Part shown: positions 2,925-64,000 of the stretch, piece by piece
Position numbering within the stretch: position 1 is the first letter of the stretch
How the letters are laid out: each line of letters opens with the position of its first letter
Origin: Hormiphora californensis
Lineage: Eukaryota; Animalia; Ctenophora
Direction: 5' to 3'
DNA length: 64,000 nt
NCBI GenBank assembly: GCA_020137815.1
Contig: CM035360.1
Coordinates: forward strand, 5,952,001-6,016,000
Program-made: the position numbers and the translations under genes
Notes under the pieces: generated by a model
What the model saw: only the letters and a program-made list of their open reading frames with translations
Told to the model about the DNA's origin: nothing
Databases searched by the model: none

Positions 2925-3068
2925 CAATGAAATAGTGTTTATTTGGGACTGTAGACGACTCGGAGATTTATTTCAGGAAAGATAATACGGTCTACAGTCC
3001 CAAATAAACACTATTTCATTCTATCAAAACTATGCGACTCAAAAACAGCCGATTGGTCAACTTATTGG
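2925..3068. mobile_element. Short Penelope-like non-autonomous retroposon, copy 1 (5'-inverted; lacks the SL and hammerhead core)
   Basis: 12-bp TSD aacagagctgta (2913-2924 / 3069-3080); near-identical to 7265-7330 plus 7407-7464 plus 8251-8270. Confidence 0.8.
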
Positions 3069-3236
3069 AACAGAGCTGTAGTAAGTCTGAACGTTTATAT
3101 TTTATAATTATAGATATACATAGGTGAATTAATAATTATACTTATACAGCAGCATGAATTTCTTATCATCCACTAATTGCTTGATAATTTTATATTATAA
3201 ACATAAAAATACAATGTTTTGTAATTTGTCTGAGAT

Positions 3237-3990: not shown

Positions 3991-5072
3991 TAAAGAAGTA
4001 GAAAACATGTTAAACGACATGGGCTGGAGTATTCTAATCATATTAGCACTTTCTTCATGTAACGCGCGGAAAACATTCGCTTTGTCTGCGCATTTGTAAC
4101 GCGCGAAATCGGCTTTTTCTTAAAATAAAATTCAAAAAAAAGTTCTGTTTTGGGATTTGAAAATTTAACCTTTGGGCTTTGAAAAGCGCTGCCTTATCCC
4201 GCGCTGCGAACCTATCAGGGGCCAGCAACGTTTGCCAAATTTAACCTTTTTTTCCTGTTCAAGTGTTCATTTTCTGTTTAAGTACTCGCACTGAGCTTGG
4301 TGCGTGAAGTGAATAAGACGAGGATGAGAAGAATTACCAAGACCATGAATCGATTCTCAAAACCCACCTGTTTGAAAAGTCGTATGGTGTTTAGGATGGA
4401 CTGTCCCATTAATTTATGTGTAAATCTATACCTGACGCATGCTTTGAGCTTCAGAATTATGGAGCAGTGATTCGCTCCACTCTTTTATTTCGTGATTAAT
4501 CTCTTTTCTATGTAACTTATTACATTAATACATTGATCTAACATATATTTTCATACATATAATTATTTCTTACTTAATCAAAAACATTTAATTTATTATC
4601 TACTTATTATCATCATATCTGGACTATTAATATCACTCATATCATCTTTCTTTTCCACTTTGGGTTCACCGCTTTAGAAGGCGGGTAGGAGTGCTCTGGC
4701 GCTCATCGAGTAACTTTGTATGACGTTTATCACTCTTACTATTATTAGTTCAAAAAGCGGGATGTTAAATGTACATTTTGATTGATTGATTGATTTATTT
4801 ATTTAGTTGTGCTTAAAACGCGACTCTCTCTATTTAGACCCGATCGAGAGGGGGGTTCCATTGCGTAATTTGTAATAAATAGGGACAGTGCCCCATTACA
4901 AAACAATCACACTCTTAATCCCGAAGTTTAACTGAAAATGCGTATTACTTCCGCACGTGGCGGTGGCAAGGCCGAAAGTCTGACAGTAGATCACTCAGGC
5001 GGTACTGAACTTAAAAATTTACCGTTTATGTAACAAAAATTTGAAATATTCCCTCTCTCCTAGACAGCAATC

Positions 5073-8000
5073 ATGGGAAAAGATTATTACGCTATTCTGA
5101 GCGTCCCCAAGGATGCTACTGACGATGTCATCAAGAAGGCATACCGGAAACTAGCCCTGAAATATCACCCGGACAAGAATAAGGAACCTGGGGCAGAGGA
5201 GAAATTCAAGGAAATCGCAGAGGCATTTGAGGTACTGAGCGATCCTGAAAAGAGGCAGATATTTGACCAGTATGGAGAGGAAGGATTGAAAGGTGGAGCT
5301 GGCCCATCAGGCAGTGGTCCCTCCTCAGCAAACTTTAACGGAAATACCTTTATATTCCATGGAAATCCTTTCGCCACTTTTTCCTCGTTTTTTGGGGACG
5401 AGGACCCATTTCAGTCAGCATTCTTTGTTAATGGACCTAATATCAGTGGAATGCCTAATATGGGAGGGATGGGGCCCAATATCAGTGGAATGCCTAATAT
5501 GGGAGGATTTCCGGGTGGAATGGGTGGTCCAGGGATGAGTTCTATGTTCCAACAAATGGGAGGGGGTCCATCATCAGGGACTCCTGCTGAAAAGGTACAG
5601 ACCAAGTGGTAAAATAGTTGTACCACTAATCACCACACCATGGTGCACCACTCTTTAACTATTTAAAATGAAAATTTATTCACAGAGCAAATCCCGGTCA
5701 CATTTCACAGTCGATAGTTTATGCTATGTTTTCTGACACCCGTATTGCCCCCCCCCCCCTGGCCCTCCTGGTGAATGGTGTCAGTATTATCCCCCTGTTT
5801 TAAACACCCACTCCACTTTCTTTAATTAACACACCACTCCACTAATTAACTCACCACTTCACTAATTAACACACCACTTCAGGAAGTGTATCTGACACTG
5901 GAAGAGTTATATCAGGGATGTACTAAGAAGATGAAGATAACCCGATCTATCTTCCAGGACCCACATGGGAGGACCCCCTCACGTCAGGTACCATGCCTTG
6001 TAGTGTCTGTGTAGTGTCTGCCAGGTACCACCACCAATACCATTATTACCGCCCGCCATAACAAATGTACTCGCTCGTTTAAGTGGACTGGGCCGTGTAG
6101 TCGGTCTCTCAGTCTAGATTTAGGAAAGCATGGTCAAAGCTGTGTAATGCACTGTCTAGATTTGGGATGGAATGGAGTCATGTGTAATGACTAATGTGAG
6201 ATGTTCCACTGTCCGTCTGTTTGTGTAGAAATTGTTAGTAATAATATACATAAGATGTGTACAAGCAATATAAAGGCAGTTTGACTCATATATGATTTTT
6301 GGGGCTTCATGCGTGTAAATGTATTCAATGTTAAAAAGTGAAATAATACCTAACTAACCTAACACTTTTTGTCGATTAGTAGTTCTAAAGTATCAGTGGA
6401 ACCGATACCTTAGAACTTCCACCTTGTGCAAATGTGAGTTTGCTCAAAGCTAGTAGGACTGATAGTTTGAATGTTTACACGATTTCCCCTATTTTAGGAG
6501 GAGAAAATTCTAACGCTAGACATAAAGCCAGGCTGGAAGGAGGGAACGAAGATGACTTTTAATAACGAGGTTCGATAATGTCTTCTTTATAATATCTTCC
6601 GAGATCATTTGATGGTTTCATGATTCATGAATCATCTCTCGTGAATAAAGCATATTCTTCCCAACCATTTTCACATCTGAAAGTTAGGGGAAACTCTAAC
6701 TGAATGGCATCCCATTAATGGGATCCCATCAACAGTAAAACTCTAACTGTCTCACACAGAGAGAATACAGAGAAAGAACCATCACTGTGGTCCATTATCA
6801 GTTAGAGTTTTACTGCTGATGGGATCCCATTAATGGGATGCCATTCAGTTAGAGTTTCCCCTTACTCTCTTGTTATCTCCAATCTTCTCTTTTCAGGGTG
6901 ACGTATATCCTGGTAAAAAGGCACAGGACATCGTTTTTATAGTTCGGCAAAAACCACACTCCGTCTTCACCAGAGAAGGTAATAAGGTGTACCCCCCCCC
7001 CCCCCCTCAACTCCCCCCTCCTCTCTCCCCCACAAAACTTTAGTCCTGGCCCCATGAGCGGCGGAATGGTTTTTCTCCAGGAGACGAGCTAATACCTTTT
7101 GTTGGAAGCAAAATATGTTACTATGTTAATATTAGATTACCTGACAAAACAAACGTTCTACAGGGAACGATATCCACTACAACACTCAGATAGCACTGGG
7201 AGAGGCGCTGTGTGGCAACACAGAGATCGTGGTACCTACAATTACACACGAGGTAATATTGATACAATGAAATAGTGTTTATTTAGGACTGTAGACGACT
7301 CGGAGATTTATTTCAGGAAAGATAATACGGGACGGTTTCGACGTTTAACGTCATCATCAGCTCAAATTAATTTGTTTAAAGTAGTGTTGAAAAGTTTGTT
7401 TCAAACGTCTACAGTCCTAAATAAACACTATTTCATTGTATCAAAACTATGCGACTCAAAAACACCACCAAACACCTCCTTGGCACAGGAACTGCCAATC
7501 AAAAAATCCTCATCAATTGCGATAGCCAAGGAACAATCAAAGCACTGGACAGCACCGTATGCAGATCCAAAACCACCCAAAACACCATTTCCAACCTGAA
7601 CGCCCTTGCAGTTTTCAACACCGTTAAAATACGGTGGATCCCTGCTCACAAAGGCCACGAAGGGAATGAACTAGCAGACTCCCTCGCCAAAAAGGGAGCA
7701 CAAGAGATTGAAAACATCATACGCCCTCCAATCCCGAAGAAAGCCGCCTATGCGGCCCTCAGGGAGAAGACAAAAATGACAACGGCTCCAACGGCTCACA
7801 TGAATCTTTTCTGGAACCCGAACCACGTCAAACAGCTCCAGAAACTGGACCGAAACCACTTGAGAGCGGCAACCCAGCTTCTGACTGGGCACAACACACT
7901 TAAATACCATTTTCACAAGATGAAACTAGCAAACACTCCAACCTGCCGCCTATGCGGCATAGAAAATGAAACAGCCAAACACCTCCTCACCGACTGTCCA

Positions 8001-9529
8001 GCTCTCTGGAAACAGCGGCAAGAGAGGTTTGATCGGCTTGGTTTAACCCTCGATGACATCAAGAATGGCTTCCCGATCACCAAGACTGTTTCATTCTTCA
8101 TGGATATCCTGAAACAGTTAAACCGGGGGGAAGAGGACTAACAAATCCAAACCCCCAAACCAGGCCGGGGAAAGGAATCACTTTGGTACCACCCCTCTAT
8201 CTCACCTACGAGACGGCCTAATAGAAGAAGAAGAAGAAGACTCAAAAACAGCCGATTGGTCAACTTATTGATTCAGTAATATTGATAAACAGTTCATTTT
8301 CATCATCTGATGGTGTTTTGTACTGGGTCAATACTACTTTTACTGCGATGTCTAGAAAACAAAGTGTCTTTCTAAAATATGATTCAGCTCAGAAACATAC
8401 TGTTATATGAGGTATAAACTCTGGCCACTGGCGCGTTATTTCAGATAACTTTCTCCCAGCGCGCCGCTGGGAGAAGTTAGCTGAAGTTTATCCGCCGCTG
8501 GCGGATAAACTGGTTTAAATCACGACGACGATCCCGAGGCGGAGCCGAGGGAGAGGCGGAGGGGTTTAAACCTATAACGTGCCAGTGGTCAGAGTTTATA
8601 GGTTATATACCCTGCTTTAGTTGTTTATTTCAAGTATTACACACCAACAAGAGAGAGAACACTAATCAAAACACTCAAAGAGGACTGAGAAATAGTTAAA
8701 ACACCTCACAATTGAGTGTACACTATTTGGTAACAGTTACTAAGCAGTTGCTAAGGAAAGAGAGTGAAAGAAATAGCTTGATAAGGGGCATGTCACACAT
8801 AACACAGAGGAAGAGATAGTGAGACAAAAGGGGAGATAAAGAGAGAGTAATTGACGGAATGTGTCCTTTCTTTCTCTCCAATGTAGTGTGTAAGTGTTGC
8901 ACATAGTGTTCCCTCTGTATTTTAGTAAGAACTGATCATTTACACACACTTTGAATGTTCAAAATAAATAACCTGCCAGTGGGAAATAATCTGCCGCTGG
9001 ACTGGCTGTTTATTGAGAGCGCGCTAGTGGGACTGGCGGGTTATTTAAGTTAGCAGGGTATATACTGTTATAGCTGCTATTCTGCACTGGCAGTGTGTAA
9101 CAGGTGTACACTGCAGTACATGTATGATGTGTTTAACATAATTATGTGAATTGTCTACACACTGAAAAAGGGGGTATGTGTGCAGCACACATAACACAAT
9201 CAACTAATAATGGTTCCATATACGAGTATTTCAATCATTTCCAATCTAACCCCTTGGTGACGCCATCCCCTTCGCGGGCTTCGTAGTGGAGACTGGAGGG
9301 GTGACTGCGTCATCAATCTAACCCCTTGATACTTCTTCAGAAAATTCCAATTCCAATTGGGGATTCTACAGTTAAACCTGGGTCAAAGAGAAAGATCAAG
9401 GGTTATGGTATGCCCCTCAGCAAGAGGCCCGGGCAATATGGAGATATGTTGGTTACTATCAATGTTGAATTTCCCGATAAACTCTCTCCGCAGCAGAAAA
9501 GTGCAGTCCGAGAATTGTTTCCAAAGTGA
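5073..9529 (+). CDS. DnaJ/Hsp40 class B chaperone (DNAJB1/4/5-like)
   Basis: MGKDYY..HPDKN J-domain and G/F-rich region. Exons ~5073-5594, 5883-5987, 6499-6569, 6898-6978, 7164-7252, 9341-9529 give [59 protein letters not shown]. Confidence 0.95.
6687..6861. mobile_element. Tourist/PIF-Harbinger-type MITE
   Basis: ~60-bp TIRs ggggaaactctaactgaatggcatcccattaatgggatccc...; TTA on both flanks (6684-6686, 6862-6864). Confidence 0.85.
7331..7360 (-). ncRNA. Minimal hammerhead ribozyme core
   Basis: Minus strand CTGATGA-t-GACGTT-a-AACGTC-GAAA-c-c-GTC: conserved CUGAUGA box, stem II, GAAA box, rudimentary stem III and GUC triplet, as in Penelope-type minimal hammerheads. Stem I is not formed in this copy. 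Confidence 0.7.
7361..7398 (-). other. Spliced-leader-like exon sequence (retrocopied, not an SL RNA gene)
   Basis: Minus strand caaacttttcaacactactttaaacaaattaatttgag ends in TTTGAG and matches my recollection of the ctenophore (Pleurobrachia) SL. It is followed by CT, not the GT donor expected in an SL RNA gene. Confidence 0.7.
7465..8238 (+). mobile_element. 5'-truncated non-LTR retrotransposon (RNase H + C-terminal zinc finger; I/R1-LOA group)
   Basis: ORF to 8141 with [25 protein letters not shown] and LTGH..CRLC..ET..HLL..C; (GAA)n tail; 12-bp TSD gactcaaaaaca (7453-7464 / 8239-8250); the empty site is seen in copy 1. Confidence 0.92.
8397..9072. mobile_element. Non-autonomous element with two tandem inverted-repeat pairs (Crypton-like layout)
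   Basis: IR 8413-8439 / 8574-8600; second IR tatataccctgct 8604-8616 / ~9052-9064; internal palindromes and a ccgaggcggagccgagg motif; flanking direct repeat atactgttata. Confidence 0.55.
9256..9314. mobile_element. Short TIR element with 13-14 bp flanking duplication, family C
   Basis: ggtgacgc...ttcgcgggcttcgt...ggtgactgcgtcatc flanked by aatctaacccctt; related copy at 16191-16267. Confidence 0.6.
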
Positions 9530-10421: not shown

Positions 10422-13400
10422 ATGATTCTATATGTGACTAAAGACTGTGACGAATCTCTTGCTTTACTTGTCCTAAGCAAGCTCAGCGGATCAAAGGCCG
10501 AAGTAAAGGTGGTACCATCGGACTTCAAAGTTGTTTCTTATCTGAAATCCACAAAACAAGTTCCCTCGATTCTCCTTGATTCGGGAGATCTACTCTTCAC
10601 ATTTGAGGCGATAGTACTATACCTGTCAGACTCAGTATCTCCCTATCTGCTGTCGACTCCCTCCATTGAAGAGCTAAACCGATATATCCCCTCTCGTTCT
10701 CTATTTGGTGAGAATGAAACCCTGAGCCCTACCGACATGGTACTTTGGACAAAACTTGGCGGTGCTCTTCGCTCCTGCAAAGCTTCTGGTGCGTTCTACA
10801 GTCAATGTCCACGTGTTGCTTTTTGGTTTGAGAAAGTTTCCGGTGATGCCAGTGTGACGGCAGCCATTAAACAACTGGGATATGTACCACCAAAAAATGC
10901 TCCAGTCAAACCCGCAACAACAGAGAGCAAGGCCCAAGGTAAACAGCAACAGCAAAAACCACAAAAGCAGCAACAGCAGAAAAAAGAAGCAAAGAAACCG
11001 GTAGCAGATGCAGTGGAAAACTTTCTTCAACAGATGGTAACTGCTGAACAGAAAAGTGCAGGTCTAAAGAAATGGACGGAAGGTTATCCTACTGGGAATG
11101 TCTCACGCCAGGAGGTCCATCCAAAAGTACCCATCCCGGGTCAAAAGAATAACTTGATCACCAGTGCTCTACCCTACGTGAACAACGTCCCCCATCTGGG
11201 TAATATTATTGGAGCGGTCCTCAGTGGGGACTGTTACGCGAGATACTGTCGGCTAAAGGGTGAGAACACCCTGTACATCTGTGGAACAGACGAGTATGGG
11301 ACTGCGACAGAAACCAAAGCCCTGGCGGAGGGTTTGACACCCAAGCAGATTTGTGATAAATACAACCAACTTCACGCACAGGTTTACCAATGGTTCAACA
11401 TTAGTTTCGATTACTTTGGCCGAACAACGACGTCTCAACAAACTGAAATTGCCCAGGACATTTTCTGGAAGGTCCACAATAACGGATTTACAGTGGAACA
11501 AACAGTGGAACAACTGTACTGTAACGCCTGTAAAAAGTTCCTGGCGGACAGGTTTGTGGAGGGCACGTGTCCGTTTTGTGGATATGAGGATGCTCGAGGA
11601 GACCAGTGTGACAAGTGTAGTAAGCTGATAAACCCAGTGGAACTCAAGGATCCGAAATGTAAGGTGTGTTCTGCGTCACCCACGGTGAAAACATCCAAAC
11701 ACATGTTCCTGGATTTACCTAAACTTGAGGAGAAGATTGCCGAGCTGAGCCGAGAAAGGGAGTCAAGTAAATCATACAACCCCACCGCTTGTGCGATCAC
11801 CAACTCCTGGTTGAAAACCGGCCTGAAACCTCGGTGCATTACCCGGGACCTGAAATGGGGGACACCAGTTCCCCATCCTGAGTTTAAAGACAAGGTGTTC
11901 TATGTCTGGTTTGATGCCCCCATTGGGTACATCTCCATCACTGCTAATTACATGAAGGACTGGGAGTTGTGGTGGAAAAACCCGGAGCAGGTCACCCTGA
12001 CGCAGTTCATGGCAAAGGATAACGTACCCTTCCATACGGTTAGTGTTGTTGGTTTGGGATGAGATGAGATTGTGATCAGTACACATCTCCAAGTCTCACT
12101 TCTATTCAGATAATGACGAATGTCTCAACTAATCTTTAGTCTTGTGTTGTTTCTCCAATGTATGAGTTAATAGGGGATACTAATTCAGTACATACCAGTG
12201 AGATTACTACTAGAAAGAGAGGACACACACACAATATTTTATTTACCTACCCCCCCCCCCCCAATCATCAGGTGGTGTTCCCGGCCTCTCTCATAGCGGC
12301 CCAGGACAATTACACTATGGTTAATGTACTGGATGGTATTGAGTACCTGCAATACGAGGGCATGAAGTTCTCTAAGAGCCGGGGAACAGGTGTATTTGGA
12401 GACCAGTGTATTGAGACCAATATACCCTGTGATATTTTCAGGTAGAGTAGCTGATATCTTCAGGGTCGCTGGTTTTTATGATGATGATGTTTTGTTGCAC
12501 GTCAGTTGGCTGTTGGTTAACTAAGTTTGGGTAGCTAGAGCTTTGACTTATTGGGTGTATTGGGTGTAGAATTCAGTGTCCTTCGGAAACTAATCATGTA
12601 ATAATTAACACTGTATCTCCCTTGTTTCATAGGTGTTATCCTGCTGCTAAACCGACCAGAGACAAGTGACACTAACTTCACCTGGGATGGCCTAGGCCCA
12701 GACAAACAACAATATCCTCCTAAACAACTTAGGAAACTTCACTCTTCGGGCCCTGACATTCTGCAGGAACTCCTTCGGCTCTGAAATCTCAAAGATATCC
12801 CTCAACTCAGAGGATGAGCACTTTATTGCTCTTGTTAACACCCACCTTGCAGCATACTACAAGCACTTTGAGGCGAGGTTGTTCAGTCGGGCCTTTGAGA
12901 GCGTGTTCTCCATCTCGAAGATTGGTAACCAATACCTCCAGTACAACCAGCCCTGGGTGCTGGCCAAGGGAAATGAGGTTGACAAGGCTAGGGCTGGATC
13001 TGTTATTGCACTAGCTAGTAATCTTGCTGCCCTACTCTCAGTCACCCTCTCCCCCTTCATGCCAACCATTTCGAAGATCCTCCAAGAGCAGCTGGCCCTC
13101 CCTGAGGACAGAAAACAGTTCACTGACACCTTTGTGCCACTTCCTAAAGATCAGGCCATAAGATCGGTACACCCTTCCCACTATTTAGCAAGATTGAAGA
13201 TGCCAGAGTAGCTGAATTGAGGTCCAAGTTTTGTGGCTCTGATGGTTCTGCTGCCCCCGCCACTACTCCTGGAGATATCGCAGCCCTTCAAGCTGAGATA
13301 GAGAAACAGGGAGGGAAGGTCCGCGAGTTGAAGGCAGCTAAAGCGGATCCTGCAGCTATCAAAGCTGAGGTTGCTAAGTTGTTGGAACTGAAGAAACAAC

Positions 13401-13724
13401 TCCCAGCTGAGCTACAGCAGCCTGCCCCTAGTAATAAGAACAAGAAGAAATCACCACCTGCTGCTACAGAAGAAGGGACCATCACCACCTGCTGGACAAA
13501 AGAATAATCCCACACCCGCCACGACACCAGCACCTGTGTCAGCTGATGTTGCAGCTTTACAGAAGGAAATAGAGGTACAGGGGCTGAAAGTCCGGGAGTT
13601 AAAGGCAGCGAAGGCTGATAAAGCAACCATTGATGCTGAAGTGAAGGTGTTGTTAGCGCTGAAGGGTAAACTCCCTGCCGAGCTACAACAACAGCCAGGA
13701 GGAAAGAAGGGGAAGAAGAAGTAG
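10422..13724 (+). CDS. MARS1: Cytoplasmic methionyl-tRNA synthetase (GST-like N-terminus, catalytic and anticodon domains, two WHEP domains); apparent frameshifts in the last exon
   Basis: [16 protein letters not shown] (HIGH), CGTDEYG, zinc knuckles, [20 protein letters not shown] (KMSKS), two [16 protein letters not shown] repeats. Exons ~10422-12038, 12272-12441, 12633-13724. Confidence 0.97.

Positions 13725-35467: not shown

Positions 35468-44490
<9,023 letters not shown>

Positions 44491-46546: not shown

Positions 46547-56336
<9,790 letters not shown>

Positions 56337-60420: not shown

Positions 60421-64000
<3,580 letters not shown>

Follow-up and report, generated by a model that had tools for sequence, protein, structure and literature searches.

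How does the 3′ end of a host spliced leader (SL) come to lie directly against the core of a hammerhead ribozyme, within a small retroposon? This question is raised by a locus in a stretch of 64,000 nucleotides from the ctenophore Hormiphora californensis (assembly GCA_020137815.1, contig CM035360.1, positions 5,952,001 to 6,016,000), which we call the window and whose own numbering is used throughout. An initial annotation, made from the letters only, had read the insertion as the cDNA of a non-coding RNA of about 190 nt that was SL trans-spliced exactly at the ribozyme edge, and had described it as a retrozyme-like element exploiting host trans-splicing. Here, the anatomy of the insertion, its junction, its other copies and the rival explanations of its origin are considered.

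Besides the window, contigs from public sequencing runs were used. Part of the stretch is present in 20 of the 24 runs listed, four of which were compared: the DNA runs X1, X5 and X8 and the RNA run X15. X1 is perhaps the window's own source, while X5 and X8 come from other studies, X8 under another organism label. The pieces examined are the 32 listed out of 4068 and the loose ends the 24 listed out of 200.

Anatomy of the insertion

The insertion spans 7265-8275 between the two copies of a 12-bp target-site duplication (TSD; Table 1). It had been placed at 7265..7464, which is too short: an unrelated LINE fragment is nested in its tail, with a 12-bp TSD of its own (7453-7464 / 8239-8250). 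By coincidence, the frame of this fragment is in register with one of the arm, and the two form a chimeric ORF of 238 aa (7425-8141). Minus the LINE fragment, the element consists of a 96-nt sense part (the core and 66 nt), the SL, 7-8 nt of inverted SL and an inverted arm, with a perfect 39-bp inverted repeat between 7259-7297 and 7406-7444. The last 6 nt of the left TSD (7259-7264) also match the element's own continuation, i.e., there is microhomology at the priming site. The insertion carries no poly(A), and all three features that the initial annotation had listed (12-bp TSD, inverted 5′ arm, no poly(A)) are confirmed.

Table 1. Features of the insertion and of its sister copy, in window coordinates.
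Feature	Position	Strand	Basis or remark
Sister copy	2925..3068	-	same 3′ end, inverted arm, 47-nt tail
Left copy of the outer 12-bp TSD	7253..7264		repeat search, sequence
Element body below the predicted cut, 66 nt	7265..7330	-	65/66 identical to sister copy
Minimal hammerhead core	7331..7360	-	stem-requiring descriptor; published consensus (PMC4209133, Fig S3, rows available)
Spliced-leader exon, nt 7-44	7361..7398	-	published leader, exact exon boundary
Putative inverted copy of SL nt 4-11	7399..7406	-	sequence against published leader; inference
Inverted 5′ arm, first part, and start of tail	7406..7464	+	repeat search
Nested unrelated LINE 3′ fragment	7465..8238	+	domain scan: RNase H, zf-RVT; (GAA)n end
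Rest of the arm's tail	8251..8275	+	total tail length 51 nt, counted from the sense 3′ end
Right copy of the outer 12-bp TSD	8276..8287		repeat search, sequence

A sister copy, missed by the initial annotation, is flanked by another 12-bp TSD (2913-2924 / 3069-3080). Both copies in the window carry an inverted, 5′-truncated copy followed by a tail (47 and 51 nt), as do Penelope-like elements (PLEs) of the EN+ type. An inverted 5′ copy with a tail of 30-40 bp is given as a PLE hallmark in the portion of PMC8557442 available, and both window tails are somewhat longer than that. The PLE-type anatomy proposed earlier on the basis of one copy therefore holds for two. A direct repeat (partial tandem pLTR) is found in neither window copy, an organisation that short-read contigs cannot show.

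A PLE protein (RT, GIY-YIG) is absent from the five window ORFs that were scanned for domains. The copy's own reading frame, considered as a clue to a partner ORF, is uninformative, as each of the three frames meets a stop after the core. The body pattern has no match in metagenome contigs and the arm pattern none in viral contigs. Patterns combining the SL end with the core occur at three viral and five metagenome loci, all without the rest of the SL and without a proper stem II, and are therefore due to chance; a 13-nt match at 63753-63765 of the window extends into no further similarity. Ctenophore Naiads are a possible partner clade. Beroe Naiads are described, in the part of the source available, with an 'HHR_core' and no insertion preference.

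The surroundings of both copies are host genes: a VWD/C8 exon (2047-2676) and a DnaJ gene (5064-5612), both from the domain scan, and a methionyl-tRNA-synthetase-like gene (10422-13724; by eye). Some 500 nt to the left of the element, two mutually inverted sequences of about 65 nt, which contain internal palindromes (6684-6749 and 6799-6865; by eye), possibly represent the ends of a small DNA transposon.

The spliced leader and its joint to the core

The minus-strand sequence 7398-7361 corresponds to nt 7-44 of the 44-nt H. californensis SL at 38 of 38 positions, by eye against the leader given in PMC8527503, which confirms the ctenophore SL named in the initial annotation. Its 3′ end, AATTTGAG, lies at the exact exon boundary, and CTGATGA follows immediately from 7360. 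The direct joining of SL and hammerhead-type core without GT, as first reported, is thus seen at 7361/7360. In the window copy the exon continues with CT and has no GT donor or intron part of an SL RNA gene. Contigs resembling SL genes do occur in X1, where the loose-end consensus before 7361 has GTAAG right after the exon boundary. Among X1, X5 and X8, only the consensus of X1 has a GT donor after the genomic SL, and the loose ends before 7361 in these three runs are highly mixed (agreement 0.45-0.56).

Adjacent to the 38-mer, the segment 7399..7406 suggests, if it is an inverted SL copy, that cDNA synthesis proceeded to about 3 nt from the cap; a 4-nt insertion in the SL 5′ end is an equally good alternative reading. 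In record 8 of X1 (window 7377-7440), the arm is joined directly to the 38-mer and the 7 additional letters found in the window copy are missing; this record is another copy or allele with the same architecture.

The initial annotation had stated that ctenophores use SL trans-splicing, and the host puts this leader on many of its RNAs. In the RNA run X15, SL depth is about 2.6e5 versus 4-13 on the element body, with varied and unrelated loose ends. The SL is present on many different RNAs in this run, although contigs cannot show true 5′ ends. The accessible part of PMC8527503 reports the SL on 56% of Hormiphora Iso-Seq reads, and 718 SL loci in Hormiphora.

The hammerhead core and the predicted effect of the leader

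The core is composed, in this order, of CTGATGA, a bulged T, a 5-bp stem II with a G-C closing pair, GAAA (7339-7336), C-C-G and TC ending at 7331, which places the predicted cut between 7331 and 7330. A stem-requiring descriptor finds one core in the window, against one core in 200 block-shuffled windows. When the stem is not required, the pattern matches in 16 of 100 shuffles and is not significant alone. Core and stem II fit the published PLE minimal-hammerhead consensus, with an atypical loop 3 of 1 nt (C-C-G) and without the 5′ strand of helix I in the window copy. No row compared from PMC4209133 Fig S3 has such a loop 3, and among the indel rows listed from public runs none restores the usual form. 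The ATG of the core at 7357 opens a frame of 14 codons, followed by a stop in the window copy.

The covariance-model check that the initial annotation had proposed turned out negative: the Rfam scan of the window gave no hammerhead model, either at gathering score or at E up to 10, probably because helix I is missing and helix III is minimal. At gathering score the scan returns a single tRNA gene, at 42387-42458 on the minus strand (RF00005, 55.3 bits). Up to E of 10 there are six matches, all below gathering score, and the best of these are miRNA hairpins caused by the inverted repeat.

Can the leader stand in for the missing strand? Paired with the post-cut strand, the final 15 nt of the SL yield -0.8 kcal/mol, a value matched or bettered by 385 of 500 shuffles, compared with -5.2 kcal/mol for a perfect 5-bp helix I. 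The SL as a substitute helix I is rejected on these values. In the SL-joined copy, helix I is not closed on both sides of the cut, and since the pairing is no better than in shuffles, the SL form is predicted not to cut in cis. The loss of the stem I 5′ strand that the initial annotation had pointed out is thereby upheld, and the block of cleavage that it had deduced agrees with this prediction.

A further consideration concerns the nucleotides before the core. The post-cut strand starts with CC in the window family and with CG in a second family, so that with an AG acceptor the second position of helix I would not pair. AG would be missing from a perfect helix I, which would count against a simple switch. 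In the row Latimeria 3 of PMC4209133 Fig S3, AG does directly precede the core, but it is paired there. According to the same paper, as far as available, the consensus has a U-rich stretch upstream of helix I, and PLE minimal hammerheads cleave poorly in vitro.

Copies starting at the predicted cut site

In the sister copy, 65 of 66 nt of the sense part are identical, and the start of this part coincides with the predicted cut site (1-nt ambiguity); neither core nor SL is present. One private variant is common to its sense part and its arm, and both are therefore likely to derive from one template. In one X8 contig, the arm joint lies exactly at 7330 with no microhomology and with a different arm start, which marks it as a second cut-site copy, independent of the sister copy and likewise lacking SL and core. 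These two are the only cut-site copies known. Cleavage at 7331/7330 is what we infer from two copies starting at the predicted site. For Poseidon of Anolis carolinensis (PAc), the passages available of PMC11167929 report no RNA reads beginning at the cut site and an insertion that does not need cleavage.

Recurrence of the junction in other copies

Body depth is hundreds of times flank depth in the three DNA runs, indicating a multi-copy element rather than giving a copy count. Among the 32 listed pieces, three bridge SL and core with at least 31 letters on each side (X1 record 6, X5 record 24 and X8 record 32). Each DNA run contributes one of these bridging pieces; with 3, 5 and 7 letters unlike those of the window copy, they are hence other copies. 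When the listed pieces that cover the body and reach 7359 are considered (n = 18), 12 run into the SL for at least 5 letters, five stop at 7360-7362, where the contig itself ends or has one letter left, and one clearly continues into non-SL sequence. As the listing favours long, SL-joined alignments, 12 of 18 among the listed pieces is not to be taken as a share.

The junction is not confined to one core. Behind the SL, a four-contig consensus from X5 (agreement 0.66) has a second core with CTGAAGA, a 4-bp stem II and GAAACG-TT. It lies directly behind the SL in the same register, and it fits the published consensus rows available in PMC4209133. In addition, 11, 9 and 9 contigs of the three DNA runs have the SL, one C and then CTGATGATG (agreement 0.51-0.64). 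At the RNA level, the check for reads across the SL-core junction that had been suggested gave a partial answer: a single 50-nt contig of X15 crosses it with 28 and 22 letters, which is below the 31-letter rule, and it could be DNA.

Trans-splicing exactly at the ribozyme edge, as initially claimed, is backed by the recurrent SL-core junction in other copies. A precursor with AG directly before the core is not seen among the listed pieces. At 7362, immediately past AG, four listed pieces from three runs come to an end, which hints at other alleles that have this AG in common but diverge past it.

The SL is also found on a retrotransposon of another type. The last 15 nt of the SL occur exactly at 51122-51108 (minus), 21 nt ahead of an ORF1 ATG (51086), with a chance expectation of 4e-4. 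Behind this remnant lies a LINE at about 46762-51107 (minus) with two ORFs and APE and RT domains. No TSD was found for this SL-headed LINE, and its SL piece is followed by GT but not by GTAAG. It is likely a retrocopy of an SL trans-spliced LINE mRNA. SL heads on retrotransposon copies may accordingly be routine in this host, and they need no ribozyme. The remnant supports trans-splicing as the mechanism and at the same time weakens the claim of a special adaptation; that the element 'exploits' host trans-splicing, as the initial annotation put it, is unproven, given a LINE in the same window that also has an SL remnant.

Origin of the junction

The explanation that we favour, with moderate confidence, is that the insertion represents a short copy of the 5′ end of a PLE RNA, in which the SL was joined at the core most likely by trans-splicing, the spliced RNA remaining uncut and the unspliced RNA being cut. 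The precursor would be transcribed with an outron, and an AG directly before CTGATGA would double as the 5′ strand of helix I. Upon splicing, the SL would replace the outron, by which the RNA would gain a cap and lose helix I; the junction that this would leave is the one observed. Transcripts that keep the outron could be cut at 7331/7330, 30 nt beyond the splice site, where the cut-site copies begin. A PLE reverse transcriptase would then prime at the target nick, as the anatomy of the copies suggests, start inside the RNA about 96 nt below the core and copy to whichever 5′ end exists, and the inverted arm and tail would be added from the same RNA template. Two kinds of RNA 5′ end, one capped and the other cut, would thus be recorded in the genome. 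Should the RNA serve as the mRNA of an autonomous element, splicing would place the capped leader 3 nt before a start codon and, by analogy with PAc, shield the RNA from its own ribozyme.

According to the available text of PMC11167929, PLE reverse transcription starts internally and the PAc tail is the stretch between two internal RT start sites. With an internal start, RNA length cannot be read from the length of a copy, and a short copy can derive from a long RNA. The non-coding RNA of about 190 nt in the initial annotation is therefore unsupported.

A rather unlikely alternative is that trans-splicing is real but incidental, with the U-rich stretch serving as a pyrimidine tract, a weak or dead ribozyme and no switch. 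Such an acceptor would be in keeping with the share of Hormiphora Iso-Seq reads that carry the SL (PMC8527503) and with the SL 15-mer ahead of the LINE ORF1 in the same window, while the U-rich consensus upstream of helix I (PMC4209133) would provide the tract. The atypical loop 3, the predicted helix I mismatch and the poor cleavage of minimal hammerheads in vitro (PMC4209133) all fit a ribozyme of little effect. Nonetheless, two independent copies begin at the predicted cut nucleotide, and the junction register is equal or 1 nt off in two to three sequence types, both of which argue against this alternative. Taken over both of these explanations, trans-splicing as such is highly probable.

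Alternatively, the SL exon could be genomic in a master element, a PLE piece having fused behind the exon of an SL RNA gene and being driven by the SL promoter in a SINE-like manner. We consider this improbable. SL-joined copies are common among the listed pieces, where the precursor is not seen, SL loci are numerous (718 in Hormiphora; PMC8527503) and retrotransposons that target the SL exon exist (NeSL; PMC4640811), all of which would suit such a master. Yet at least two different cores share the junction, which would require repeated exact fusions, and the cut-site copies in this family presuppose a helix I, which the SL cannot supply. Most improbable of all is a junction formed during copying, in the manner of U6/LINE chimeras: the reverse transcriptase, on reaching an RNA 5′ end at the core edge, would jump to a free SL exon, or the RNA would be ligated to one. 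In its favour, a perfect helix I would have G as its last letter and offer 1 nt of microhomology with the SL end. This mechanism, however, requires a supply of free SL exons cut precisely at the donor site, which are known only as a transient intermediate of splicing. Ligation should take place at the cut site (5′-OH) and not 30 nt upstream, and four listed pieces end right after AG.

Extending the favoured explanation, an SL acceptor at the core edge may act in several ctenophore PLE families as a cap-or-cut switch with both RNA forms retrocopied, a generalisation that we put forward tentatively and hold to be the less probable side of the question.

Implications

The role of the hammerhead in PLEs is an open question, as it cuts poorly in vitro (PMC4209133) and is dispensable for PAc insertion in vitro (PMC11167929, in the sections available). 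The SL can serve as a tag showing which RNA form was copied. Counts of capped, cut and outron-bearing copies would tell whether cutting occurs in vivo, whether splicing switches it off and which form spreads, and bear on why PLEs usually keep introns. If the proposed mechanism is true, host trans-splicing would control a transposon ribozyme as a switch, and by comparing the numbers of capped and cut copies one could read, as from a fossil record, how active the hammerhead is in living cells. Retrocopy heads may account for many genomic SL copies, and some of the hundreds of ctenophore 'SL loci' may likewise be such heads rather than SL genes.

Comparison with known systems

Cis-splicing at a PLE hammerhead is already known, while SL trans-splicing there was found in no paper in our literature search, much of the subscription PLE literature being beyond its reach. 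Neither the part of PMC8008620 available nor the repeat passages of PMC8527503 contain an SL-joined hammerhead element.

Animal non-LTR retrozymes resemble the present element in being short, non-coding in the copies seen, PLE-related and equipped with a type I hammerhead (bioRxiv 10.64898/2026.07.22.740005, part available). They consist, however, of tandem units with a ribozyme in each and have circular RNA, whereas the copies seen here are dispersed monomers with a minimal core, an inverted arm, a tail and a TSD. The window holds two such monomers, one without core, and no tandem array, and the term retrozyme-like is for that reason not retained. In NeSL and its kin, retroelement sequence also adjoins an SL exon, but these nematode elements insert into SL genes (PMC4640811, as far as accessible), while here the SL is inside a TSD-bounded insertion at an unrelated site. 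SL-tagged retrocopies of dinoflagellates are closer in that a genomic SL without intron donor reportedly marks the copy of a trans-spliced RNA (PMC12014239 and PMC5585692). Those cases are host genes, whereas here the RNA copied is the leader of a retroelement itself, with a junction that interrupts a ribozyme.

In PAc as in the present element, the ATG lies in the core/stem II region, the cut falls about 26-27 nt after the frame opens, and RT starts internally, about 90-120 nt downstream, with a tail between two start sites. In the accessible description (PMC11167929), PAc has no SL, a long ORF and a tail of 30-40 bp, in contrast to the frame that stops after 14 codons, the tails of 47-51 nt and the ORF partner not found here. 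The closest parallel is Penelope of D. virilis, which likewise has a splice acceptor at helix I of a PLE minimal hammerhead, so that spliced and unspliced RNAs carry different ribozyme forms (PMC4209133, portion available). In the pLTR intron of D. virilis, the cis-splice ends 4 nt upstream of the core and a 2-bp helix I is kept. In Hormiphora, by contrast, the apparently trans-spliced SL borders directly on the core, so that helix I is lost, and the spliced form itself has been retrocopied.
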